Source: Candidatus Heimdallarchaeota archaeon
GTDB lineage: Archaea; Asgardarchaeota; Heimdallarchaeia; JABLTI01
DNA: 11,940 nt
Assembly: GCA_030614005.1 (NCBI GenBank)
Contig: JAUWKS010000088.1
Coordinates: forward strand, 1 to 11,940
Direction of reading: 5' to 3'
Shown here: in pieces, positions 283 to 11,940 of the stretch
Position numbering within the stretch: position 1 is the stretch's first letter
Layout of the letters: the number at the start of each line of letters is the position of its first letter
Program-made: the position numbers and the translations under genes
The notes under the pieces: model-generated
Databases searched by the model: none
The model's input: the letters and a program-made list of their open reading frames with translations, nothing else
Told to the model about the DNA's origin: nothing

Positions 283-1035
283 ATGACAGAAGAAAATCAG
301 TCCTCTAATATAGGTATCTCAGTTATAATGATGAGTGAAATAGGTCCACTAACTCATATTAACAATTCAGATTTAGATGATGTTGCTCAAATGTATTTAG
401 CCGTTAAAGGCTTTACTGCTTTTCTGACAGGTTTTGAGCGTGAAGAACAAGGGCCAGGACAAATTAGAGGTATTTTACAAATTCCTACTACAGAAAAATA
501 TGCTATTGCTTTTGATCACAATATGAAAGGATTAGGAACTGAGGAAGACCTTCGAATGAGGGTTAATAGAATGGGAATTATCTGCCTAATTACAACTGCT
601 GAAGAATTAGAAATTGTTCGCAGATTCTATTCAGAAACAGAACATTTTCTTGCAGAACAATTACAAGTTATTATCTCAATAGTTGATTTAACTGAGGAAT
701 TCATCAATACTTTAACAAAGAAATACAATACATTCATTCAATCTCTAGTTGATTCAGAGAGAAGAAAAGAACAACCTTTAACAGAACCACAAAGTTTGTT
801 TGACATTACAATACTACTCTCGCTTCCAAAAGATGAAAATCAAACGGCTAGAGTAATAATGGATATAATGACTAATGCCGAAAAACAAGGAGCAACATTA
901 AAAGATATTTGTGCAATCACAAAACGTGGCAAACGTAAACAAGTGGTTGTTCTTGATAAACTAATAACTAAAGGATTAGTTATTGTTATTCCTCATGAAG
1001 ATGATAGTAAAGAAATATTGTATAAAGCAAAATAG
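283..1035 (+). CDS. Hypothetical protein: putative longin/uDENN-like N-terminal domain + C-terminal winged helix-turn-helix
   Basis: 250-aa ORF. The N-terminal pattern is strand-GP (ISVIMMSEIGP), helix, strands (IRGILQIP, YAIAFD), D-x-R, strand (GIICLI), helix, which resembles Asgard longin/uDENN-like domains. The C-terminal ~65 aa (TARVIMDIM..GATLKDIC..LDKLITKGLVIVI..EILYKAK) read as a wHTH. The CDS is solid; domain calls are by eye. Confidence 0.6.
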   Translation: MTEENQSSNIGISVIMMSEIGPLTHINNSDLDDVAQMYLAVKGFTAFLTGFEREEQGPGQIRGILQIPTTEKYAIAFDHNMKGLGTEEDLRMRVNRMGIICLITTAEELEIVRRFYSETEHFLAEQLQVIISIVDLTEEFINTLTKKYNTFIQSLVDSERRKEQPLTEPQSLFDITILLSLPKDENQTARVIMDIMTNAEKQGATLKDICAITKRGKRKQVVVLDKLITKGLVIVIPHEDDSKEILYKAK

Positions 1036-1059
1036 AAGCATTTGGAGAAAAGAACAAAG

Positions 1060-1854
1060 ATGAAGGTTATAGTATTTCATTCATATAAAGGCGGCACTGG
1101 TAAAACAACTTTAGCATTAAATACAGCAATAAATTTAGCTCGCAGGGGTTTTAAAACTCTAGTAATAGATGCAGATCTAAATGCTCCAACCTTTGATAGC
1201 ATTTTTCCAGATGTAAAACCAAAATTCCGTTTTCATGACTTATTTGTAAAACAAAATAGCACAGGAAATGCCCCCAAATCTAAAGAGTTACCAATAAATT
1301 CAGGTATGGATCCAAAATTGGATATTATTTTTGCCGATCCAAAACCAAAATTTGGTCAAGGGCTTCTAAGTATGGATAAAGTCTTTCATGCAGCAGTACT
1401 GAAAAAATTATTGGAAACAAAGAAAGAATACGAAAAACTTGGATATGAATATCTTATAATGGATACTTCTCCATCCATGAGTTTAGCTTCTATCAATGCA
1501 ATTATTATTGCTGATGCAACAATAATGGTTTTGAGACCAAATCAATATGGTATTTCTGGAACAACTTTTCTATTCAAAGAAATCTATTCTTTGCTTGGAG
1601 CGTTAAAGAGAAAAGATTTCATGATATTCAATCAAGTAGTACAGGGTACGCCCAAGAAGTTTATTACGGATTGGGAGAAGCACTTTAAGAAAAAACTCGA
1701 TGTGAAAACCATTGGTATTATTTTGTGTGATTGCGGAATTGCTTTAAATCTATTGCATGGTAAACTAATACCTGATGAGTCAAAAAATGTTAAATTTATT
1801 CAAACAATGAACAGTATCGTTGACAATTTATTAGAAGAACTATCAAAAGAATAA
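1060..1854 (+). CDS. MinD/ParA-family (SIMIBI) P-loop ATPase
   Basis: Deviant Walker A with signature lysine (SYKGGTGKT), A' motif LVIDADLNAP and B motif YLIMDTSP. ATG at 1060 (MKVIVFHS) with GGAG at 1044-1047 is preferred over the ORF-track TTG at 1042. Confidence 0.9.
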   Translation: MKVIVFHSYKGGTGKTTLALNTAINLARRGFKTLVIDADLNAPTFDSIFPDVKPKFRFHDLFVKQNSTGNAPKSKELPINSGMDPKLDIIFADPKPKFGQGLLSMDKVFHAAVLKKLLETKKEYEKLGYEYLIMDTSPSMSLASINAIIIADATIMVLRPNQYGISGTTFLFKEIYSLLGALKRKDFMIFNQVVQGTPKKFITDWEKHFKKKLDVKTIGIILCDCGIALNLLHGKLIPDESKNVKFIQTMNSIVDNLLEELSKE

Positions 1855-1932
1855 AGTTTAGTAAGATTTTTCTTTGAGTATTAACGAAAAATTTTTCCTT
1901 TTACTGGACAACTAATTATTGATTATTGTGGA

Positions 1933-4104
1933 GTGCTAATACATTTGCCTAAAGTGATTGGTATTGATATTTTAGCAGGTGCATCTTCTCAAAAACGCCC
2001 ATCTAATCGTGCAAATAAATTTGCAGCCGTTGTTATGGAAAATGAGCAAATAATTGAAAGTCATAATTCACTTTCCACGAAAAATCTTGTAAAATTATGT
2101 AAAGTTCATGAACCAATATTTTTGGGTGTAGATAACATCTTTGAAATTGAAGCAAATTCTGCAAGAATAATCCAATTTTGCAGTCTTCTTCCTCTCGAGA
2201 CAAAGATACTTCAAGTGACGGGTGCACCGCCAGATGGTTTTGAATCATTAAATAGGTTAGCTAGAAGACATGGAATCCCATATCCTTCTCAGCATGCAAA
2301 TCCTGTGCAAACAGCGGAAATAATTTGTCAGTTAGCAGAGAAAAAAGTGGGCTACATATTAATGCCTTTTGAAGAGGAATCTGAAATAAAAATATCTCGA
2401 GCAAGATCCATAGGCCCGGGTGGTTGGTCACAACAAAGATATGCACGAAAGATGCGAGGAGAGATATTGACTCTTTCTCGAGAGATAGAAAAACAGCTAC
2501 TGGATCATACCATAGATTTTGATTTGGAAGTGCGAAAGACAGAATATGGTTATGACAACGCAGTATTTAGAGTCTATACATCATTAGCAGCACTAAGGAA
2601 AGTAGTAAAACCATACAAAGGAGAGCTCTCGAGAGTAAGTGTTACACCAATTAGAAAAAAGCGTTTGGAATTTTATCCAGCAACAGGAGGAAGAAATAGT
2701 GGTTCCTTAGGAATAAAAAGAAAATCAAATCGTGGTTTAATTGTTGGTGTTGATCCAGGTCCAAATACCGGTATTGCAATACTAAATTTCGCGGGTAATA
2801 TATTACTAGTTGATTCGATGCGAAGCGCAGCGAGGGGAGATATTATTCGATTGATAACAACATATGGAGATCCAACGTTAATCGCTGCTGATGTAACACC
2901 CCCTCCAAATTTCGTTGTTAAAATTTCAAAGATGCTTAATACAGGACTCTATTTTCCTGAAAGGCTGCTTAGTGCTGATGAAAAAAGTCAAATTGTAGAT
3001 GATTTTTCAAGCAATATAGGAACTAGAATCAAAGGCTCTCATAAAAGAGATGCTCTCAGTGCTGCAATCAAAGCATATCAAAAATTCAGTGAAGTATTTG
3101 ATCGAATCAACAGAGCGCTTTCAAGCCCAGAAGAGATGCCATTACGAAATATGGTAAAACAAATCGTCATTAAAGAGCAAATGATTATCCATGATGCCAT
3201 TGAAGAGGTAAAAAAACGCACTCAAAAAGTGAAACGACCCGAAATAAAAGTAGAAGAAGAAATAAAATTAACAGAAAATGAGGTAACATTAACAGAAAAA
3301 ATAGCTGCTTTGAATGAACTTATCATCAGGCAAACAACACAAATTGAAAATCTCGAAGATATGAATGAAGGATTATTTGATGGTTTGGCTAAAGCAAGAT
3401 ATGAGAGTAAAGAACTCAACAGAAAATTAAGTAAATTAACGAATCAAAAAAGTCAAGAATTGAAACGTGAGAGAGCAATCAAAACACGTGATGATGAATT
3501 ACGACTCTTGAGAAGACAAGTAAAATCTTTGGATAGAGAGCTTGGAAAAGTGAAAGGAATAATATCTGATCTCAAACGAATGATTGTAATGAATTCCAAT
3601 CGCGTTGTTGTTCCTATGAAAGTAATTTATGAATTCTCTCGAGAAGGAATTGAAAAAACAATTGAAAGGGTAAATGTAGAACCATTCGATGTTGTATTAT
3701 TACTCAACCCCTCAGGAGGAGGACAAAAAACAGCTGAAATGCTCATTGAGAGAGAAGTGAGAGCAGTTGTTTGTTCGCAAAATATTATCTCGAACAAAGC
3801 AATGGAAGCGTTCATTCAAGCAAATGTACCAGTACTCTTTGAGATATCAATTAGGCAAATAGATGATATTGCAGTAACCTTCTATGAAGAATTAGAGCAA
3901 GCGATTGCAGATTGGGAAGAGCAAAGGCAAAGATTACAAAGTGAGAAAACAGAGAAGAAATTAGGAGTGCTCATTGCTGAATATCAAAGTGAACGGAGAG
4001 AAGAATTAAGACAAATATACCAAAAAAAGCGAAGCAAAAAGAATCAAGCATCTCCTAGGCACCCAATAAAAACAATTGAGAAAAAAGAGATAGATAAAGA
4101 GTAA
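1933..4104 (+). CDS. DUF460 / COG2433-type protein (RNase H/RuvC-YqgF-like fold plus long coiled coil)
   Basis: 723 aa, GTG start. N-terminal VIGIDI strand, central LIVGVDPGPNTGIAIL and HKRDALSAAIKAY motifs, heptad-rich coiled coil at about aa 440-545, charged C-terminus. This matches the conserved archaeal family. Confidence 0.85.
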   Translation: MLIHLPKVIGIDILAGASSQKRPSNRANKFAAVVMENEQIIESHNSLSTKNLVKLCKVHEPIFLGVDNIFEIEANSARIIQFCSLLPLETKILQVTGAPPDGFESLNRLARRHGIPYPSQHANPVQTAEIICQLAEKKVGYILMPFEEESEIKISRARSIGPGGWSQQRYARKMRGEILTLSREIEKQLLDHTIDFDLEVRKTEYGYDNAVFRVYTSLAALRKVVKPYKGELSRVSVTPIRKKRLEFYPATGGRNSGSLGIKRKSNRGLIVGVDPGPNTGIAILNFAGNILLVDSMRSAARGDIIRLITTYGDPTLIAADVTPPPNFVVKISKMLNTGLYFPERLLSADEKSQIVDDFSSNIGTRIKGSHKRDALSAAIKAYQKFSEVFDRINRALSSPEEMPLRNMVKQIVIKEQMIIHDAIEEVKKRTQKVKRPEIKVEEEIKLTENEVTLTEKIAALNELIIRQTTQIENLEDMNEGLFDGLAKARYESKELNRKLSKLTNQKSQELKRERAIKTRDDELRLLRRQVKSLDRELGKVKGIISDLKRMIVMNSNRVVVPMKVIYEFSREGIEKTIERVNVEPFDVVLLLNPSGGGQKTAEMLIEREVRAVVCSQNIISNKAMEAFIQANVPVLFEISIRQIDDIAVTFYEELEQAIADWEEQRQRLQSEKTEKKLGVLIAEYQSERREELRQIYQKKRSKKNQASPRHPIKTIEKKEIDKE

Positions 4105-4214
4105 AAAAAATAACTGCTACATCTTCATTATCTTCTAACCGCTAGAGGAACAAAAAATGGAGAAGAAATTTTTTGAGCAATTAATAATTCCAGAATGGAA
4201 AATGAGTTAAAATA

Positions 4215-4469
4215 TTATTCTGCAGGAATATCAATTTGAATCCAGAGAATATTATTACCTCGAATGAATATTTTACCGAATGCGGCAACCTTGTCTCCTT
4301 TGTAGTATTCAACGGCACTTGTCAAAACCATGTTCATATGTTGATCTTGAGCGTCTAATAAGCCTCTAAATTCGCGGCCATCTTTTAATCGAATACAAAT
4401 CATATTGCCGTATGCTTTTCGAAGTCGGTTAATCGGATGTGAATTGAATGTTGACATAGATGTAATCAT
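4215..4469 (-). CDS. Sm/Lsm-family RNA-binding protein (SmAP2-like)
   Basis: Sm1 motif (IRLKDGREFRGLLDAQDQHMNMVL) and Sm2 motif (FGKIFIRGNNILWI). The alternative start is the second Met (MSTF). Confidence 0.93.
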   Translation of the reverse strand: MITSMSTFNSHPINRLRKAYGNMICIRLKDGREFRGLLDAQDQHMNMVLTSAVEYYKGDKVAAFGKIFIRGNNILWIQIDIPAE

Positions 4470-4683
4470 CTTCCTATTTAGGATATGCTTAAGTTATTAT
4501 GAGCTACCCCATACTTAAAATCTTACTGACTGAGTGTTATTAAGATTTCGTCATTTAAAAAGAAAAAAAGAAGAATAAAAGCTTTTCCAAATAGTTGAAA
4601 GATTCTTAAAGAAAAAATAATGAAAATAATAACCCGTAGCTAACAAATTTCTTCGTCATCCGAATTCTAAGGTATAGAAAGAT

Positions 4684-4690
4684 TTTATAA
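4684..4690 (+). promoter_or_regulatory. Candidate TATA box for the tRNA-Phe precursor
   Basis: TTTATAA preceded by purine-rich AGAAAG, about 60 nt upstream of the tRNA. An alternative, weaker TAATATA lies at 4724-4730. Confidence 0.35.
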
Positions 4691-4768
4691 GGAAAAAATA
4701 ATTGAAAAACAACAATGGTGTCGTAATATACTCTAATAAGCAAGGGTTGTCGAAGTAGCTTAGCCCGG

Positions 4769-4793
4769 AAGGCATCATACGATGTCTGGGTAA
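4769..4793 (+). other. tRNA intron 1 (25 nt, D-loop, position 19/20), BHB-type
   Basis: Central helix GCCC (4763-4766)/GGGT (4788-4791), bulges GG^A and AA^G, and a 7-bp intron helix AGGCATC/GATGTCT. Splicing restores the D-loop AGCCCGGGA. An alternative 23-nt register (4770-4792) is less canonical. Confidence 0.75.
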
Positions 4794-4827
4794 GAGAGCG
4801 CAGGACTGAAGATCCTGTTGCCGGGTG

Positions 4828-4858
4828 ACAATCTAGGATGTACTCCTGATTGCCCGAA
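4828..4858 (+). other. tRNA intron 2 (31 nt, T-arm, position 53/54), BHB-type
   Basis: Central helix CGGG (4822-4825)/CCCG (4853-4856), bulges TG^A and AA^T, and intron helix CAATC/GATTG extended by AGGA/TCCT. Splicing restores GGGTG-TTCAAAT-CACCC exactly. Confidence 0.85.
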
Positions 4859-4910
4859 TTCAAATCACCCCTTCGACACCATTAATTTCTTTTCTTGAAA
4901 AAGAACAAAC

Positions 4911-5735
4911 CTATACTATGTAAATATTTACATTATCAACCCACGAATTATTTTCATATAATTGGTTTAGATCTTCTTTTAGTTTAAAATTAGTTTTAAC
5001 ATATAATCTTGCAGAATTAGCTTCAAGCAAAATCCTCCTATGTTCTATTTTATTTGCTCTTTTATTGATGATTTTCTTCAAGCTAACTTTATCAGAGATA
5101 TCTTTTGCATCTCTACAACTAACAATTATATTCTCATCATCTTTTCTTGCGATTAAATCAATCTCTATTTTTTGTTTATTTAGATAAAAAACAGCATTTG
5201 ATACAACACTATAGCCATCATTTACCAACAATTTCTTAATTTCTTTTTCAAAATTGCTTCCTGCATTTTCATTGTTTTCAAATCCATAAAATCGCAAGTT
5301 CTGAGGATATTGATTACTTTTTATGTTGGATTCAAATAACTCCACATAGGTTTTAAGATTTAATTTATCATTCTTAATTTCGGTGTATGCACTCTTATCA
5401 ATTAAAATAACACCATTCTGTTTAGCAAAGTTATAAATTCTATTAGAGTTAAAATTCTTGTAAGCAATAACTAGAGAGGTTATGTTATTTTCAAATTTTC
5501 TCTCAAAGTGTAAGCACTCGTAAATTGTATCTCGAATTATTGATGTTGATGGTCGGCCTACTGATGATTTTATTTCAATTGCCTTAATAGAAATAATATT
5601 TTTTCGCTTATCAAATTCAATTACCATTACATCGAAAATATGTTTGTTGCCAATTTTATTAAAACGATTATCAAATGTTATTTCAACTTCATTTAAAATT
5701 TCTATTTTGTAACCTTTAAAAGGAAGAGCAGTCAA
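4911..5735 (-). CDS. Tandem PD-(D/E)xK restriction-endonuclease-like protein (Mrr/type IV-like), possibly 5'-truncated
   Basis: Domain 1: FDVM..AIEIK (D35, E54, K56) ending in AKQNGVILID. Domain 2: GSNFEKEIKKLL..GY.V..EIDLIA..IIVSCR. TTG start. The frame is closed upstream by a stop at 5763-5765. Confidence 0.7.
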   Translation of the reverse strand: MTALPFKGYKIEILNEVEITFDNRFNKIGNKHIFDVMVIEFDKRKNIISIKAIEIKSSVGRPSTSIIRDTIYECLHFERKFENNITSLVIAYKNFNSNRIYNFAKQNGVILIDKSAYTEIKNDKLNLKTYVELFESNIKSNQYPQNLRFYGFENNENAGSNFEKEIKKLLVNDGYSVVSNAVFYLNKQKIEIDLIARKDDENIIVSCRDAKDISDKVSLKKIINKRANKIEHRRILLEANSARLYVKTNFKLKEDLNQLYENNSWVDNVNIYIV

Positions 5736-5758
5736 TACATAATTACTTGGAGAATAGA

Positions 5759-6523
5759 TTGACTAAAAAGAGTAAGATTAATTTTTGCAAATTCTGTGGA
5801 AGTAAAGTTGACTTTATGGATGAAATGAGTGATTACTATTGTCCTAAATGTTCGATGTTTCAATCTACTATTGCAACATCTAAGAAAGGATCAGAAACAT
5901 CACAAATACGATATGATATTGAATCACAATTGCTGACTGAATTTCAGCGTCTCCAGAGTGATGTAATAAGCCCATGGCAAAGTACTCCTTTTACGTCAAA
6001 TAGACCATTAAAAGTTCGAAAACTCAAAATGAAGAGTGGACGATTTGGAATATTTGATCTTGAGAATAAATCCTTAGGTAGTATTAAAATGGTTCCAGCT
6101 ATTGCTGATCGTGATTTTACTTTTTTAGATGCTCAAAATAATCAGATAGCCTATGTTGATGCTCATATAGGCCTCTTTGAAATTCAAGAAAGAAAATATG
6201 ACATTTTTGATAATGATAACAATTTACGCGGAAGAATCATTCGAAAAACAGATAAGAACAGTCCTCTCCTCCTACTTGGCATCTGGAAAAATATCTATGA
6301 AATATATGATGGTAATGAGAGATTAATCTATCGAGGAATAAATTCAAAAATTCTTGGCGGTCAATACAGATTAGTTTCTAATAATAGAGGCGGGTTACTA
6401 CTCATGTATGATATAAAGTTACGTCTAATATTTGATGAATCAATAGTAATGATTAATCCTCTCTATGATCCAATACTAATGTTAGCTTATTATTTGATCA
6501 TTAGATATCCTAAAGGCAAATAA
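5759..6523 (+). CDS. Zinc-ribbon protein with a LURP-one/scramblase/tubby C-terminal-like domain
   Basis: N-terminal CKFC..CPKC. Then repeated strand units ([FY]xI[FY]DxxxxxxG/A/Y) ending in a hydrophobic helix, DPILMLAYYLII. TTG at 5759 follows GGAG at 5749-5752; the ORF-track start is 5747. Confidence 0.55.
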   Translation: MTKKSKINFCKFCGSKVDFMDEMSDYYCPKCSMFQSTIATSKKGSETSQIRYDIESQLLTEFQRLQSDVISPWQSTPFTSNRPLKVRKLKMKSGRFGIFDLENKSLGSIKMVPAIADRDFTFLDAQNNQIAYVDAHIGLFEIQERKYDIFDNDNNLRGRIIRKTDKNSPLLLLGIWKNIYEIYDGNERLIYRGINSKILGGQYRLVSNNRGGLLLMYDIKLRLIFDESIVMINPLYDPILMLAYYLIIRYPKGK

Positions 6524-6572
6524 TCTAATGTAAAAAGAACCAGAATAATTCCAAAAAACTTTTTAATTTTCA

Positions 6573-6589
6573 AGCAGTCTTTGACTGCT
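6573..6589 (-). terminator. Hairpin at the msrB stop, followed by a U-tract on the minus strand
   Basis: AGCAGTC-TTT-GACTGCT, a 7-bp stem overlapping the TAG at 6588-6590. The A6 run at 6553-6558 on the plus strand is U6 on the minus strand. Confidence 0.35.
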
Positions 6590-6989
6590 AATCTGTTTTT
6601 TCGAATGCTAAAGATACTGAATTAATACAGTAGCGTAACCCAGTTTTATCCTTTGGACCATCATTAAAGATATGTCCTAAATGTCCACCACAGTTTTTAC
6701 AGAGAACTTCAACCGTTCGCATACCATGTGTAATATCTATTTTCTCAATTATCTTACTCTTGTCTATTGCATCATAGTAGCTTGGCCAACCACATCCAGA
6801 AGCAAATTTTGTTTCGGATGAAAAGAGTTCTGTACCACAGCCTGCACACTTATAGATGCCTTTTTCTTTATGATCCCAATATTCACCTGTAAATGGTCTT
6901 TCTGTACCCTTTTCTCTTAACACTGAATATTCTACTTTTGATAATGATTTCTTCCATTCCTCATCAGTTTTATCTTTTGCAGAATTCAT
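6588..6989 (-). CDS. msrB: Peptide-methionine (R)-S-oxide reductase MsrB (zinc-binding, Cys form)
   Basis: [12 protein letters not shown], two CxxC motifs, [17 protein letters not shown] and catalytic RYCINS (Cys codon TGT). Confidence 0.97.
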
Positions 6990-7209
6990 CTTTTATTGTT
7001 ACTCCTCAGGTTGAATGTTATTAAATCCACTTCAAACAAATTTATTCTTATTTGTTTATTTTCTGTATTATTGAAGCAAATTATTGTTATATTTGGAACC
7101 TTTCTTTGTTATTCTAATTGAATTTGATGAGAAACAAAATAATAAAATACTCTAATTATTGGATATCTTACAAGTAGTTTCTGAATGAAAAATTAGAGGA
7201 AAAAATAAA

Positions 7210-7713
7210 ATGATCGATTCAGCAGCATTTATCTCGTTTTTAGAGAAGAATTTTCAATTTATCTGTGGAGTACCTTGTACGTATTTTAAGAAAATGTTAA
7301 TTTTTCTCGCAGAACACAAGTCAGAATTACAACTTCAGCATATTTTAGCTACTCGAGAGGATGAAGCGATGGGAATAGCTTCTGGAGTAGTTTTTTCAGG
7401 AAAACAAGCAATTGTTTACATGCAGAATAGCGGATTAGGAAATGTTGGTGATGCATTAACATCTCTTGCTCAATTGTACAAATTGCCAATGGTACTACTG
7501 ATTAGCTATCGTGGTTTAGAATCAGACCGATCTTTTCCAGAGCACGATATTATGGGTGAAGTAAATGAAGCTGTTCTAAAAGCTTTCAATGTCCCATATT
7601 GGATTCTATCTGAAAGTGGTTGGGAATCCGAAATGAATCTTGCTTTGAAAGAGATGAAGAATAGCTCTTCTCCTGTAGCATTACTAGTAAAAGATGGAGT
7701 GTTAAGTGAATGA
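7210..7713 (+). CDS. comD: TPP-dependent sulfopyruvate/phosphonopyruvate decarboxylase, alpha subunit
   Basis: GVPC, TREDEAMGIASG, YMQNSGLGN and LLISYRG motifs of the ComD/Ppd N-terminal domain. Substrate specificity is not resolved. Confidence 0.8.
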   Translation: MIDSAAFISFLEKNFQFICGVPCTYFKKMLIFLAEHKSELQLQHILATREDEAMGIASGVVFSGKQAIVYMQNSGLGNVGDALTSLAQLYKLPMVLLISYRGLESDRSFPEHDIMGEVNEAVLKAFNVPYWILSESGWESEMNLALKEMKNSSSPVALLVKDGVLSE

Positions 7714-8276
7714 AAGGATTTGAAGTAATAACAGCAATGAAAGATTATATTTCAGAGAAAGATATCATTATTAGTTCAAACGGCAATATTAGCAGAGAAG
7801 TCTATCACCATTTACCTCAACCTCAAGTTTATCTTCGAGGTTCTATGGGTTTACCAGTTGCAGTAGGTCTTGGACTGGCTTTAGCAAATCCTAATAATAG
7901 AGTGATTGTAGTTACTGGAGATGGTAATTTCTTAATGGGGATGGGTTCATCTGTAACAGCATCTTTTTACAAACCAAAAAATCTTAAAATATTGATACTT
8001 GATAATAAGAGCTATTTCACTACGGGAGGACAGCAAACAGTATCTCCAGCATTAAATTATTCGAAATTTATCGATTCACTAAATGCTGAATATAAAAATT
8101 CTAAAGAAGCATCAAAAGATCAAATAAAAGAAGATTTATCACGATTTCTAAATTCAAACACTTTTGCTATGCTACATTTGATTATTGAGGCTTCCAAGGA
8201 AAATCTTGAAAATATTCCCTGGCATCCAGAAAATATAACTAAAGAATTTACCGGAAAAATTTCTAAATTGAGCTGA
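7710..8276 (+). CDS. comE: TPP-dependent sulfopyruvate/phosphonopyruvate decarboxylase, beta subunit
   Basis: NGNISRE, GSMG, TPP-binding GDG...DN and TTGGQQT motifs. ATGA overlap with the alpha subunit suggests translational coupling. Confidence 0.8.
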   Translation: MKGFEVITAMKDYISEKDIIISSNGNISREVYHHLPQPQVYLRGSMGLPVAVGLGLALANPNNRVIVVTGDGNFLMGMGSSVTASFYKPKNLKILILDNKSYFTTGGQQTVSPALNYSKFIDSLNAEYKNSKEASKDQIKEDLSRFLNSNTFAMLHLIIEASKENLENIPWHPENITKEFTGKISKLS

Positions 8277-8360
8277 GTTTTTTAGAAATAAAATATCTAA
8301 AAGGGATAATATGTTTTCATAACAAACATCCTTATTAAGATAAATTTCATATCAATTAAT

Positions 8361-8987
8361 ATGAAACGCAAAACACGAATTATCTTGCTAGTACTTATTG
8401 CCATAACTTTAGTAGGCAGCGGAATAGGTGGTTTTGCTTTGTGGAATTTTTGGCCCGCTACATGGTCCTCCGAACCACCCGTTTTAGACTTTCCAGTTGA
8501 AAACACAGATGTAATACATATTATGGCGGGATATGGAAATATTGGACTAGGATTTTTTCACAATGGTATTGATTTTGGTTGTAATGATTCTGTAAATATT
8601 ATAGCCCCTTGTGATTTACGTGTTATAGGCATCAAAACTTGGCTCTATGCTACAGACCCAGACAGGTGGCAAACAAGTGTTCGAATGAGAACCAACATAG
8701 GTTATTTGTTAGAAATTGCTTTTGAGTCATGGGCATTAAATGAATCATTTGCTGATCTACAAAGGAATGCTCTTAATATCAAAGTTGGCCAAAAAGTAGA
8801 TCAAGGTGAAGTTCTTGGTCAGCTACTTTATCATGGAGATGGCACGCATATTCATTTCATGATAAAAGTGAATGGAGAAGACGCCTGCCCGTATCAATTT
8901 TTCAGCGCATCTGCAAAAGGTATTTTTGATCCACTGTGGATTTTATATGGAACAACAAGTATCATTTGTAATGATACCTCAACCTAA
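8361..8987 (+). CDS. Membrane-anchored M23-family (lysostaphin/LytM-type) zinc metallopeptidase
   Basis: N-terminal basic then hydrophobic segment (aa 1-28). H67-N-G-I-D71, APCDLRV, IKVGQKVDQGEVLG and H163-I-H165-F motifs, and a C-terminal CPY (DP-like). Confidence 0.8.
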   Translation: MKRKTRIILLVLIAITLVGSGIGGFALWNFWPATWSSEPPVLDFPVENTDVIHIMAGYGNIGLGFFHNGIDFGCNDSVNIIAPCDLRVIGIKTWLYATDPDRWQTSVRMRTNIGYLLEIAFESWALNESFADLQRNALNIKVGQKVDQGEVLGQLLYHGDGTHIHFMIKVNGEDACPYQFFSASAKGIFDPLWILYGTTSIICNDTST

Positions 8988-9125
8988 AGAAATATCTAGC
9001 TTGGAGAACTTTTGTAAGAGCAATGCTATATATTTACTCTGATTCTTTACCGTAAAAAGAATAAGAAAATAAAAGTAGATTGAACTGATACGCGAACGTT
9101 AAATTAAATTTGTAAATAACATTGA

Positions 9126-9410
9126 GTGATAAAATTGAGTAACTCTGATATAACAGGTATTGTTTCCAAAAAATTGAACCGCTATTTATTAACTGCTGCT
9201 GATGGCTCAGAATATCAACTTTTAGCTATTAATAAATGGGAAACACTTCCAAAAGAGTTGTACACTGAAAAGTTTGGCAAATTTGTAGGCGAAAAAGTAA
9301 AAGTATCTGGAAGGATTATCGAGAATATTATCTGGAATGCTTTAATCCGTTATTCCAATGAGAATGACAACAGTCCACCAAAAATAGATGATTTGAAGAT
9401 TACTGAATAA
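9126..9410 (+). CDS. Small hypothetical protein, possibly OB-fold-like
   Basis: 94-aa ORF with GTG start filling the intergenic space. It is beta-rich (ITGIV, YLLT..G..YQL, FVGEKVKVSG). The function call is weak. Confidence 0.55.
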   Translation: MIKLSNSDITGIVSKKLNRYLLTAADGSEYQLLAINKWETLPKELYTEKFGKFVGEKVKVSGRIIENIIWNALIRYSNENDNSPPKIDDLKITE

Positions 9411-9527
9411 TTTCAAATCTATTTGAGACTTGAAAAAAAAATTATTTTGATTGATAATAAATTTGAAATTAATATCAATTTTAAATAGTCAAAGATGGGT
9501 TTTTTCTTTTTAATAATTTCTTGTCAT

Positions 9528-10715
9528 TTAGGCAAGATCGATGATAGTTGCAAGAGTTGCTTGAACGACTTTAGTCATAAATTCAAAATCTAAATAATCG
9601 CTAATATCCGCACTTGTATGATAATATGGATAGCGGAATTCGAAAGTATCTGTAATTGAAATTGCAGGAATGTTTTCTTTCCAGAAAGGAGAATGGTCAG
9701 ATCGCAATAGATCAATTATTTGTTGAGATATTTCCTCATAATTTAACGGAACTTCCAAACTATGAAAAGGCAAGTCGATAGCTTTTGTTTTACATTGTGC
9801 ACAAAAAGCCTGAGCAATTGATTTGGAATGCTTGTCAGCAAAAACACCTATGAAGTTGCCCACCCTGTTTTCTATATCTACTTTGTATGCCGGATATCTT
9901 TCCGGATCTATCCCTGCAGGATATTGTTGAGAATGCTTCTTTTCAGAAGAATAACCAATCTCTTCTAAATTAAATACACCCAAAATATTCTGCTTATTGT
10001 GTTTATTCTTTTTCAACCACATAGAACTTCCAATGCATATTGATTCTCCAACCCAATTTGTTCTTGTCACATTCTCATAGAGTTTTTGTAAAGAATCAAT
10101 ATACTGCCTCTCTTTCTCTGTTAGCTGTTTGGCGATGTTCCCTATAGCTAATTGCCATGATTCTTTTACCGTTTTTCCTTGAACTAAATATTCTTCTCTT
10201 AAAACATCTAATATTTCAAGTAGTTTTATTGAATGATAAGTTGAAAAACGAAGCTCATCATCTACTAGACCAGATTCTTCCATTAACTCTCGTATTTTCC
10301 TCTCCTGTTGAGGATGGCCCTCTTCTAAAGTAAAACCTATGAAACGAACATTTGTTTCGATGTCTGCGTTTGCTAACACTCGAGCGATTTCCAACATGCC
10401 AGCAATGCCTGAACCATTATCGTTTGCTCCTGGCGAAACACTAACTGTATCATAATGAGCCGTCACAAGTATCTCCTTGTCTGATCCTTTATCCACTAAC
10501 CCCTCGATATTTCTAAATTTCTGATCAAAACCTTCTATCTCAAATATATGCTCAGTAACTTTTAACCCATACGCTTCAAATTCATATATCAGATAATCTG
10601 CTACTGCATCCAACAAATCAGGATTATCAATTGGGTGTCTAACTCCCTCAATATTGAGTATATGTTGATATAATCTTTCAACATCAATCTGTTCGATTAA
10701 TTTTGTTTTATTCAA
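9528..10715 (-). CDS. M28-family zinc metallopeptidase (YfbL-like) with a large helical insertion
   Basis: TAHYD (H87), GANDNGSG (D99), FTLEE (E131-E132), NLEEIGY (E251), RSDHSPFW, ITDT and YYHTSAD. TTG start with GAGG upstream. No signal peptide. Confidence 0.9.
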   Translation of the reverse strand: MNKTKLIEQIDVERLYQHILNIEGVRHPIDNPDLLDAVADYLIYEFEAYGLKVTEHIFEIEGFDQKFRNIEGLVDKGSDKEILVTAHYDTVSVSPGANDNGSGIAGMLEIARVLANADIETNVRFIGFTLEEGHPQQERKIRELMEESGLVDDELRFSTYHSIKLLEILDVLREEYLVQGKTVKESWQLAIGNIAKQLTEKERQYIDSLQKLYENVTRTNWVGESICIGSSMWLKKNKHNKQNILGVFNLEEIGYSSEKKHSQQYPAGIDPERYPAYKVDIENRVGNFIGVFADKHSKSIAQAFCAQCKTKAIDLPFHSLEVPLNYEEISQQIIDLLRSDHSPFWKENIPAISITDTFEFRYPYYHTSADISDYLDFEFMTKVVQATLATIIDLA

Positions 10716-10725
10716 ATTAACTTGT

Positions 10726-10869
10726 CCTCAATGAGGTATTTAGTGCTTTTTTTTATAACTGTAAGTATATCATTGAGGTATTAGTGTCGTATATTTTTAC
10801 ACAAACTTTAAATAGAATCCGAATATCCTCTCATTGGAGATTTTTCTCCATTCAGATTCCTGAAACAGG
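10726..10869. promoter_or_regulatory. Divergent promoter region with candidate operator repeats
   Basis: TATA-like TTATAAAA on the minus strand (10751-10758) and TTTAAATA on the plus strand (10807-10814). Direct repeat TGAGGTATT(T)AGTG at 10732-10745 and 10774-10786. Palindromes CCTCA-A-TGAGG (10726-10736) and TGGAGA-N4-TCTCCA (10835-10850). Confidence 0.4.
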
Positions 10870-10878
10870 TGATTAAAT

Positions 10879-11940
10879 TTGAAATCAACCAAATTCATGA
10901 AAAGTTTATTTTTTATTGCGATATTTGTAATGGGATTAGCAATCACTGCTACATCTATTAATGCTAATGTTGCAATTGAGGAAAAAGCAGTACCAATATT
11001 AACTCGAACACCATTAGAATTTACAGGTTCAGTTAACCAAGGTTCTGACAGCACTCAACACTCATTTACAGTTGCATCAACTGCAACAAAAATCGAAGTT
11101 GAGTTATCATTCAGCAGCTCATATGATTTTGACTTGAGTTTATGGGATAATACCAATCGAAGAACTGGTGGGTGGACCGATGCAGATCATTCTCTAAAGA
11201 GTGATATACCAAATGACTCCTATTCTGGTTATTCTGCAAATCCGGAAACTATTACTATTGACCCCCCCGCAACCTCTGGCACATGGAAAGTGGGATGTTA
11301 TGCTTATCGTGGAACAGGAAGCTATACAATTACTGTAACAATAACTGATACTGTTCCTGACACAACTAATCCTACCGTAAGTGTAACTGCTCCCGCAAAC
11401 GGTGCAACTGTTAGCGGAACAGTAACTATTTCTGCTACTGCTTCTGATAATATAGGTGTAACCAAAGTTTCCTGTAATATAAATGGTGGAACTTGGACAG
11501 ATGATTCGTCTTCACCTTACTCTTGGACGTGGGATACCACTAGCTATACCGATGGAAGCACTCATACCATCACTTGCCGTGCTTATGATGCTGCAGGCAA
11601 TTATGCAGACGATTCAGTCAGTGTAACCGTCGACAATAGTGGTCCTGGAGATAATGAATTAACTTCCGGTATTGCAGTCACCGGCACTTTAAGTAGTGTT
11701 GGTCAAACGGAAATGTGGTACATTGACGTCGCAGCAAACGCAGAAAAAATGGAATCAATATTAACTTGCGGAAGTTCTGATTTCGATCTCTATGGCAGAT
11801 TAAATACTGAACCAACCACCAGTACGTACGATTGGAGAGGATACACCTATGGTGGTGAAGAAGTTACTCACAATACTCCTGGCGCAGGTCGCTGGTATAT
11901 TATGGTCCGAGATTACAGCGGAAGTGGTAATTATGAATTA
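10879..11940 (+). CDS. Secreted multidomain protein (partial): signal peptide + PPC domain + bacterial Ig-like domain + PPC domain; continues beyond the window
   Basis: Hand translation gives 354 open codons from TTG 10879 (Shine-Dalgarno AGGTGA at 10867-10872; alternative ATG 10897). Signal peptide MKSTKFMKSLFFIAIFVMGLAITATSINA. PPC-like YDFDLSLW..GTWKVGCYAYRGTGSYTITV. Ig-like DTTNPTVSVTAPANGATVSG..WDTT..AYDAAGN. A second PPC-like unit SDFDLYGR..GRWYIMVRDYSGSGNYEL. Confidence 0.9.
   Translation, partial: MKSTKFMKSLFFIAIFVMGLAITATSINANVAIEEKAVPILTRTPLEFTGSVNQGSDSTQHSFTVASTATKIEVELSFSSSYDFDLSLWDNTNRRTGGWTDADHSLKSDIPNDSYSGYSANPETITIDPPATSGTWKVGCYAYRGTGSYTITVTITDTVPDTTNPTVSVTAPANGATVSGTVTISATASDNIGVTKVSCNINGGTWTDDSSSPYSWTWDTTSYTDGSTHTITCRAYDAAGNYADDSVSVTVDNSGPGDNELTSGIAVTGTLSSVGQTEMWYIDVAANAEKMESILTCGSSDFDLYGRLNTEPTTSTYDWRGYTYGGEEVTHNTPGAGRWYIMVRDYSGSGNYEL

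Follow-up and report, generated by a model that had tools for sequence, protein, structure and literature searches.

The stretch of DNA analysed here (the window, 11,940 nt) carries, at positions 4749-4881, what is very probably a functional tRNA-Phe(GAA) gene, likely the only one of its genome, whose precursor would contain two protein-spliced introns, cut by EndA and with the exons joined by RtcB. The window is contig C2 of G000, a metagenome-assembled draft of a Heimdall-labelled Asgard archaeon, 3.62 Mb in 126 contigs with 33.5% G+C and an estimated completeness of 90.4%, and the metagenomes found to contain DNA of the locus are from cold seeps and marine sediments. A preliminary description had proposed a 133-nt gene that yields a 77-nt tRNA-Phe upon two excisions, with introns of 25 nt and 31 nt at tRNA positions 19/20 and 53/54 and nothing at 37/38. 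The parse obtained by script agreed with this, no insert being found at the 37/38 site, and the parts of the gene were identified as follows.

4749-4881, plus strand: tRNA-Phe(GAA) gene, 133 nt in the genome and 77 nt spliced
4749-4768, plus strand: exon 1 (tRNA positions 1-19), comprising the 5' strand of the acceptor stem, U8, the 5' strand of the D-stem and the D-loop up to G18 G19
4769-4793, plus strand: intron 1, 25 nt, between G19 and G20 (19/20), from the script parse and BHB test
4794-4827, plus strand: exon 2 (positions 20-53), with the anticodon GAA at 4808-4810
4828-4858, plus strand: intron 2, 31 nt, between G53 and T54 (53/54), from the script parse and BHB test
4859-4881, plus strand: exon 3 (positions 54-76), comprising the T-loop, the 3' strands of the T-stem and acceptor stem, A73 and CCA

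With both introns removed, the sequence was called by ARAGORN as a tRNA-Phe(GAA) of 77 bases, and removal of a single intron resulted in no call, so that only the doubly spliced form was recognized. This product retains U8, A14, G15/C48, G18G19, G20, U33, G53-C61, TTCAAAT, A73 and CCA, and the features of tRNA-Phe identity, namely the anticodon GAA, discriminator A73 and G20, were all found to be present. G20 is an identity element for archaeal PheRS. Its restoration by the 19/20 register, as earlier argued, was borne out, with G20 read from the sequence at 4794 (A73 at 4878, and the encoded CCA at 4879-4881); compact relatives were all found to read GGGA-GAGC. An encoded CCA is also present in most tRNA genes of the genome. 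The expectation that default annotation would miss the gene proved true for the ARAGORN and Infernal runs: in the unspliced window no tRNA was detected by ARAGORN and none by Rfam at gathering score, and Infernal with Rfam on positions 4650-4950 gave no tRNA match even at E<=10. Were it overlooked, tRNA-Phe would be recorded as missing from the genome.

Both introns were found to possess a BHB motif with the archaeal EndA layout, in which each intron pairs four of its bases with four of the 5' exon, two bases being left between each of these quartets and the 3' end of the exon or intron to which it belongs. The 4-bp central helix of intron 1 is formed by GCCC (4763-4766) and GGGT (4788-4791), with 3-nt bulges GG↓A and AA↓G (arrows mark cuts or joints; GG being G18 G19 and G being G20) and a 7-bp internal helix (AGGCATC/GATGTCT). 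That of intron 2 is formed by CGGG (4822-4825) and CCCG (4853-4856), also 4 bp, with 3-nt bulges TG↓A and AA↓T (TG being T52 G53 and T being T54) and internal helices of 5 and 4 bp (CAATC/GATTG and AGGA/TCCT). Both introns combine a central helix of 4 bp with a 3-nt bulge on each of the two opposing strands and a flanking h', and removal of the two restores the cloverleaf. The geometry matches that first proposed, including the cut past the second bulge base, with one refinement, namely that the exon-side outer helix begins past a 1x1 mismatch in both cases. This outer helix is 4 bp for intron 1, where it is the D-stem, and 3 bp for intron 2, where bases 44-46 pair with 56-58. Both can be categorized as motifs of the relaxed HBh' type and not the strict hBHBh' type, because the exon-side helix starts only past one mismatched pair.

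The likelihood of such motifs arising by chance was examined by shuffling the inserts at fixed boundaries and scoring a 4/4 central helix together with an equally long intron helix. None of 100,000 shuffled inserts matched intron 1, and a fraction of 1.1e-4 matched intron 2; a 4/4 central helix alone was obtained in 0.7% (intron 1) and 2.6% (intron 2) of shuffled inserts. Plain RNAfold MFE predictions of the gene and its sub-fragments did not choose the BHB conformers, the MFE fold pairing UAAG with CUUA at intron 1 and retaining the T-stem at intron 2. MFE folds were left out as support because the BHB conformers were not returned by folding alone. A C/D-box reading of intron 2 was considered and rejected, as CUGA is present without a proper C box and, by eye, is absent from the Lys relatives of the intron described below.

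The gene was compared by BLAST against 40 relatives (NCBI 'Candidatus Heimdallarchaeota' MAGs), and the loci were then inspected. Intron 1 was found in every same-genus gene recovered and in a neighbouring genus, being 25-29 nt in length with widely different sequences; it was present in 9/9 resolved genes of the window's family (f1) and absent from the other families searched. In an alignment of seven sequences (six orthologues and the window), scored over the D-stem, central helix and first four intron-helix pairs, all 84 of 84 cells were paired. Double-sided changes were seen in four pairs, including a central-helix pair (C-G to U-A), and shifting the partners by 1-3 columns as a control left just 8-46% of cells paired. 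Compensatory change was therefore demonstrated for intron 1, intron 2 being known from one genome, and the junction GCCCGG↓GAGAGC and its cut register, as originally given, hold, with the BHB of intron 1 backed by this covariation. By its distribution among these sequences, intron 1 is old and common to the family-level group.

Exactly the 31 nt of intron 2 were found to be missing in genomes G001, G005, G006, G002/3/8 and G011. In G001 and G005, BLAST segments 1-79 and 111-133 of the gene abut to give GGGTG↓TTCAAAT, and the exons are identical between the window gene and the intron-2-free gene of G001. A contig from run X8 (a close relative, from a marine-sediment metagenome of another study) joins 4827 to 4859 with an unambiguous 31-nt skip (AC..AA). 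The junction expected of the spliced product consequently exists as natural DNA, both in intron-2-free relatives and in an independent metagenome contig, and this exact intron-free allele sets the 53/54 boundary independently of the splicing motif. Further to this, a motif-free global alignment with four compact Phe genes of the same class placed one gap exactly at 4828-4858 and the other within the D-loop. The spliced product was identical to these compact relatives at 58-62 of 77 positions, and one compact Phe orthologue scored 66 bits with the Rfam tRNA model.

As the source genome is a metagenome-assembled draft of many contigs, an assembly artefact or chimera could be suggested as the origin of the interrupted structure, but this is extremely improbable. 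A contig from run X1 spans 4500-5053 with zero differences, intron 1 was found in nine independent assemblies, and a contig from run X4 (a further study) starts inside intron 2 (4841), crosses exon 3 and enters the flank. Because the X4 contig, from a third study, leads from intron 2 into exon 3, the allele with the interruption is not a single-assembly artefact.

The preliminary description had left room for an intact tRNA-Phe(GAA) elsewhere in the genome. A genome-wide search of the G000 assembly (about 90% complete) for tRNA-like GAA anticodon arms returned only that of the window; an ARAGORN 'Phe(aaa)' call on contig C9 was rejected as a misplaced intron, the loop of that gene reading TTCGGGT. 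A second Phe gene could sit in the remaining 10% of the genome, in which case the locus might be a decaying relic with two insertions, and the working gene would be the unassembled one. This is very unlikely, as all cloverleaf invariants are intact in the excised product, intron 1 has been kept with compensatory changes in the genus and the neighbouring genus, the exons do not differ from those of G001, no second GAA arm occurs in 3.6 Mb, and the same design recurs in this genome in its genes for Lys, Cys, Met and Pro. Regarding these other genes, 17 intron-free tRNAs were called on G000 by ARAGORN and 27 tRNA matches in all were obtained with Infernal. A SPLITS-like census recovered 36 loci, of which 14 were intron-free. 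Its criteria were an acceptor stem of 7 bp, U8, CCA encoded in the DNA and a central helix of the strict kind, each spliced candidate being passed to ARAGORN; the count is a lower bound, as it covers only genes with these features. The following hidden, interrupted genes were identified on contigs of G000.

C7, 5326-5465, plus strand: hidden tRNA-Lys(UUU) gene, 140 nt, with introns in the D-arm and at 53/54 (the latter 31 nt), from the census (L041/L043)
C4, 62280-62414, minus strand: tRNA-Cys(GCA) gene with introns at 37/38 (29 nt) and 53/54 (31 nt, ACATGTG...GCACGAA), by eye (L042)
C36, 13355-13534, plus strand: Met-CAU gene with three introns (D-loop, 37/38 and T-loop), from the census
C63, 19590-19728, minus strand: Pro-GGG gene with a T-loop 58/59 intron, from the census
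C16, 14793-14901, plus strand: Gly-UCC gene with a D-arm intron, from the census
C64, 3331-3436, minus strand: His-GUG gene with a D-arm intron, from the census

The D-arm boundary given by the script for the Lys gene is probably a few bases off, with a better D-loop obtained if the intron begins past GCTCAA. A separate 93-nt 'tRNA-Pyl(cta)' was called by ARAGORN at C71, 90626-90718, and was not among the Infernal tRNA matches; either a false call or a suppressor-like gene could account for it.

The survey of orthologous genes revealed a presence/absence series, with intron 1 shared and the second interruption variable. Within the genus of the window, most Phe genes have no second interruption, that of the window genome has one at 53/54, and that of G010 has one in the 37/38 region. 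In the G010 gene (L003, about 544-680), intron 1 is accompanied by an insert of 31 nt that lies at 37/38 or directly beside it and forms no more than three of four central pairs, and the G007 gene (L010/L084) was found to contain a 64-nt D-loop insert for which no parse into BHB introns was obtained. Relaxed enumeration allowing 3/4 central pairs on the 64-nt insert of G007 and the anticodon-arm insert of G010 gave hundreds of ARAGORN-valid solutions and did not discriminate among them. The locus can be viewed as a clean natural experiment, with one genus carrying intron 1 alone, intron 1 with a 53/54 intron, or intron 1 with an anticodon-arm insertion.

Most simply, by parsimony, intron 2 would be a recent gain on the branch of the window genome itself. 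The converse, that it is a polymorphism of greater age, since lost from G001, from G010 and from the population sampled by run X8, or that it was recombined in from an unsampled strain, appears rather unlikely. All 8/8 other f1 Phe genes with a readable T-arm are without intron 2, including two that share the GTCGAAG acceptor, and an old polymorphism needs at least two losses, each of them precise. What speaks for it is that no near-identical donor was found in the window genome and that the nearest intron, the 53/54 intron of the Lys gene, is just 52-67% identical in its interior, being too diverged for a very recent copy of the resident Lys intron.

With recent gain retained as the simplest reading, the source of intron 2 was sought among other introns. 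Besides Phe, only Lys-UUU and Cys-GCA of the window genome possess 53/54 introns, and both of these are also 31 nt in length. The Lys intron was found to have one sequence throughout G000, G010 and G001 and a diverged one in G006, and on this distribution it is old. Comparison was made over the 24 interior bases, these being the positions of intron 2 free of motif constraint. Phe intron 2 shares 14 of 24 with the Lys intron of its own genome (shuffle P 8e-4) and 16 of 24 with that of G006 (shuffle P 2.5e-5), and no similarity to the Cys 53/54 intron was found. The Phe and Lys introns have the same length and position, with an identity that lies below the 80% family threshold used in a preprint by Goswami et al. 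(2026; 10.64898/2026.10.13.758758). A donor search of the window genome returned only chance-level 10-13-mers, and two core patterns of intron 2 had no match among JGI metagenome contigs. Across 82 genomes of the class, a pattern built from Phe intron 2 and the G006 Lys intron matched only these two, a result that is circular.

Related T-arm introns ending in CCGCGAA↓TTCRAAT were identified in several other tRNA types of the genus, which suggests that a family of 53/54 introns is distributed across tRNA types, being present in some genomes but absent in others. Loci carrying these CCGCGAA-ending introns are L048, L051 (G005, G004), L052 (G010), L053 and L054 (G005), and their hosts include genes with the anticodon loops CTGATAA (Ile-GAU) and CTCATAA. 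Copying of a Lys-type intron into the Phe gene is offered as a lead and not as a result. Were it the case, the copy would have had three of four central pairs on arrival, and its fit to the new host would have been restored by one G-to-C change, CGCG becoming CCCG. The likeness to the Lys intron is a testable lead on how such introns arrive, and such copying, if true, would be a concrete instance of intron movement between Asgard tRNA genes by an arrival route absent from the 2026 census.

Survey of the Phe gene across the 82 genomes of the class showed that it varies from compact to differently interrupted. The 19/20 intron was confined to the family of the window, and the gene was compact in three families. 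In genus g7 of family f2 (L061-L076), a 32-33-nt intron at 59/60 was found in 13 of the 16 genes recovered, the other 3 being compact; its central helix, determined by hand from the L066/L072 sequence only, is TTCA/TGAA. Two further families were found to have other D-arm and T-loop introns in this gene. Separately, two Hermodarchaeota MAGs (L033, L034) carry a 33-nt D-arm intron in the Phe gene at 22/23, with the central helix CGGG/CCCG, and this intron is independent of the 19/20 intron because it lies at a different position.

The preliminary description had supposed that this lineage possesses a splicing endonuclease of relaxed specificity, and genes consistent with one were identified. 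The EndA alpha subunit (contig C82) carries the catalytic Tyr/His/Lys motif (FAVYHKGPGLDH...SVRKK) and is closest to the alpha subunits of Sulfolobus, Aeropyrum and Pyrobaculum (E about 1e-36). Its specificity loop aligns without gaps (GKPVGIRKPQGDEF versus GQPLDVEKPRGADF), placing K94 opposite K44 of A. pernix EndA, for which a role in the crenarchaea-specific loop has been described (PMC5829648). A beta-like paralogue (contig C9) is without the catalytic His (GKTPSK, as against DKEHSV in M. jannaschii), and RtcB and RNase P RNA are also encoded in G000. Typing of the subunits thus gave an alpha/beta pair, one paralogue catalytic and one structural, with the specificity-loop lysine, and G000 has a predicted (alpha-beta)2 EndA with an L1 loop, as reported for Asgard archaea (PMC5829648). 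Relaxed HBh' motifs need a broad-specificity endonuclease (PMC5829648), and from the mismatch before the exon-side helices of both introns it is predicted that efficient cleavage depends on such an enzyme.

Transcription, cleavage and ligation of this tRNA in the cell are proposed to proceed as follows. The gene would be transcribed as a precursor with introns at 19/20 (in the D-loop) and 53/54 (at the border of T-stem and T-loop), the 3' end of each intron pairing with four exon bases ahead of the 5' cut to form a 4-bp helix with two 3-nt bulges. The heteromeric alpha/beta EndA, with its lysine-bearing specificity loop, would then cut past the second base of each bulge. Joining of the exons by RtcB would restore G18-G19-G20 and the T-loop, with the result that the elbow and L-shape can form.

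Putative signals were also identified on either side of the gene.

4683-4692, plus strand: TATA-like box TTTTATAAGG, a likely promoter, from direct reading and conservation
4714-4723, plus strand: leader element AATGGTGTCG, the exact reverse complement of 4874-4883
4724-4748, plus strand: remaining putative 5' leader TAATATACTCTAATAAGCAAGGGTT, conserved within the genus
4882-4896, plus strand: T-rich trailer TTAATTTCTTTTCTT, a likely archaeal oligo-T terminator, from direct reading

The TATA-like box is kept as TTTATAAGG or TTTATAATG in same-genus orthologues and lies approximately 57-66 nt 5' of tRNA position 1, an A/T box being found approximately 30 nt upstream in the other tRNA genes of the genome. 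The leader element follows approximately 25 nt 3' of the box, so the usual promoter spacing fits this element and not tRNA position 1. Its complement, 4874-4883, consists of the tRNA 3' end and two trailer bases. This match of 10 nt compares with 7 nt or fewer in 26 other tRNA genes of the genome and 9 nt or fewer in controls with mismatched leaders and tails (n=702). The element was found in most same-genus orthologues and in G011, and it was absent in G007. Orthologues with a GTCGCGG acceptor have GGTGTCGCG as leader element; these changes do not represent true covariation because the core is invariant. The element could be left over from a duplication, could form a helix used in processing, or could belong to a third interruption as its 5' exon.

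If the last were the case, the true 5' end of the tRNA would be GTCG at 4720-4723, and the acceptor stem would lose the 29 nt extending to 4752. Promoter spacing suits this upstream GTCG copy (GTCGCG in other species) and not 4749, the GGT before it can pair with A73-C74-C75, and when the acceptor stem is forced, the AAUGGU/ACCAUU pairing persists as one long helix with a 29-nt bulge. A third intervening sequence is nevertheless improbable. No register with the mature 5' end and a 4/4 central helix was found, so a third BHB intron in the leader was rejected, and no conserved BHB motif was found across orthologues in the leader at 4724-4748. Furthermore, G007 belongs to the same genus and is without the leader element, and the data are fitted equally well by a leader of 35 nt that RNase P removes at G1 in the ordinary way, RNase P RNA being present. 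A CTCT/AGGG motif ending at G1 was also discounted, as it is shared by most genes of the genus, is missing from G011 and is almost without flanking helices. So too was a splicing-dependent folding switch, the conformer pairing leader and 3' end being 2-5 kcal/mol more stable than the acceptor conformer with or without introns. A combined reading in which intron 2 would be a recent copy of a Lys-type 53/54 intron into Phe, and the leader segment may be a gene-specific processing element, is put forward tentatively and is somewhat doubtful.

Comparable Asgard genes have been reported before, and the gene of the window is a well-documented example and not a discovery. Disrupted tRNA genes and the EndA type were predicted in Asgard by Kaneta et al. 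(2018; PMC5829648), and Valentin-Alvarado et al. (2024; PMC11291895) reported 92-95% of tRNA genes to be interrupted in three complete Asgard genomes, with extra introns identified by eye. Goswami et al. (10.64898/2026.10.13.758758) found that tRNAscan-SE misses approximately 30% of intervening sequences, mostly in the D-arm, that intron gains are repeated and often on terminal branches, and, as an example, that a 21-nt D-arm insertion had been missed in an Asgard tRNA-Phe(GAA). Almost no cross-type intron families at >=80% identity were found in the focal lineages of that preprint. The present gene resembles those of these three reports in its phylum-level group, its multiple non-canonical introns at D- and T-arm sites, the failure of annotators to find D-arm introns, an (alpha-beta)2 EndA with L1 loop, and repeated, often terminal, gains; its invisibility to ARAGORN and to the Infernal tRNA model fits the published warning on missed Asgard D-arm introns. 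It differs from the preprint in that the host is a Heimdall-labelled genus of cold seeps and marine sediment and not one of the focal Freyr/Jord/Atabey families, that the whole gene and not one intron is invisible to ARAGORN and Infernal, and that intron 2 is similar to a 53/54 intron found in a different tRNA type, under the 80% threshold. The known picture of archaeal tRNA splicing is unchanged by it. Modestly new are intron 2, which looks like a recent gain related to the Lys 53/54 intron of the genus, and the unexplained leader segment complementary to the tRNA 3' end.

Similar designs are known from more distant systems. In Thermoproteales, up to three BHB introns per gene at the D-arm, anticodon and T-arm are described (Sugahara 2008, Fujishima 2010, as cited by Goswami et al.), with related introns at one position in different tRNAs and a heteromeric EndA with the crenarchaea-specific loop, as here. 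These belong to another phylum, the setting of the window is not thermophile-specific, and the likeness of introns between host genes is weaker here (16/24 at best). Relaxed HBh' D-loop introns of Aeropyrum pernix and Methanopyrus kandleri pre-tRNAs are cleaved in vitro by A. pernix EndA (PMC3241643, PMC5829648). They share with the window gene a good central and intron helix with an imperfect exon-side helix, and biochemically this class needs the loop-bearing alpha subunit; unlike those introns, which were tested biochemically, the window gene is known from its sequence, and there is no relation between them in position or sequence. The red alga Cyanidioschyzon merolae (PMC3728597) likewise has ectopic and multiple tRNA introns that lie away from the anticodon loop, with D- and T-arm sites among them, and that hide genes from standard finders; these are eukaryotic nuclear elements subject to another mode of endonuclease recognition, with no relation by descent implied.

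An 85-codon ORF on the strand opposite the tRNA gene is most likely spurious. The neighbours to which a Pfam assignment could be made (window 283-11940) have no evident link with the tRNA; they and this ORF are located as follows.

1042-1854: ParA/MinD-like ATPase, from Pfam
1933-4104: DUF460 protein, from Pfam
4215-4469, minus strand: Sm/LSM protein, from Pfam
4606-4863, minus strand: 85-codon ORF with a TTG start, lying over the tRNA gene
4911-5735, minus strand: Mrr-like nuclease domain, from Pfam
6588-6989, minus strand: MsrB, from Pfam
7210-8276: split TPP enzyme, from Pfam
9528-10715, minus strand: M28 peptidase, from Pfam
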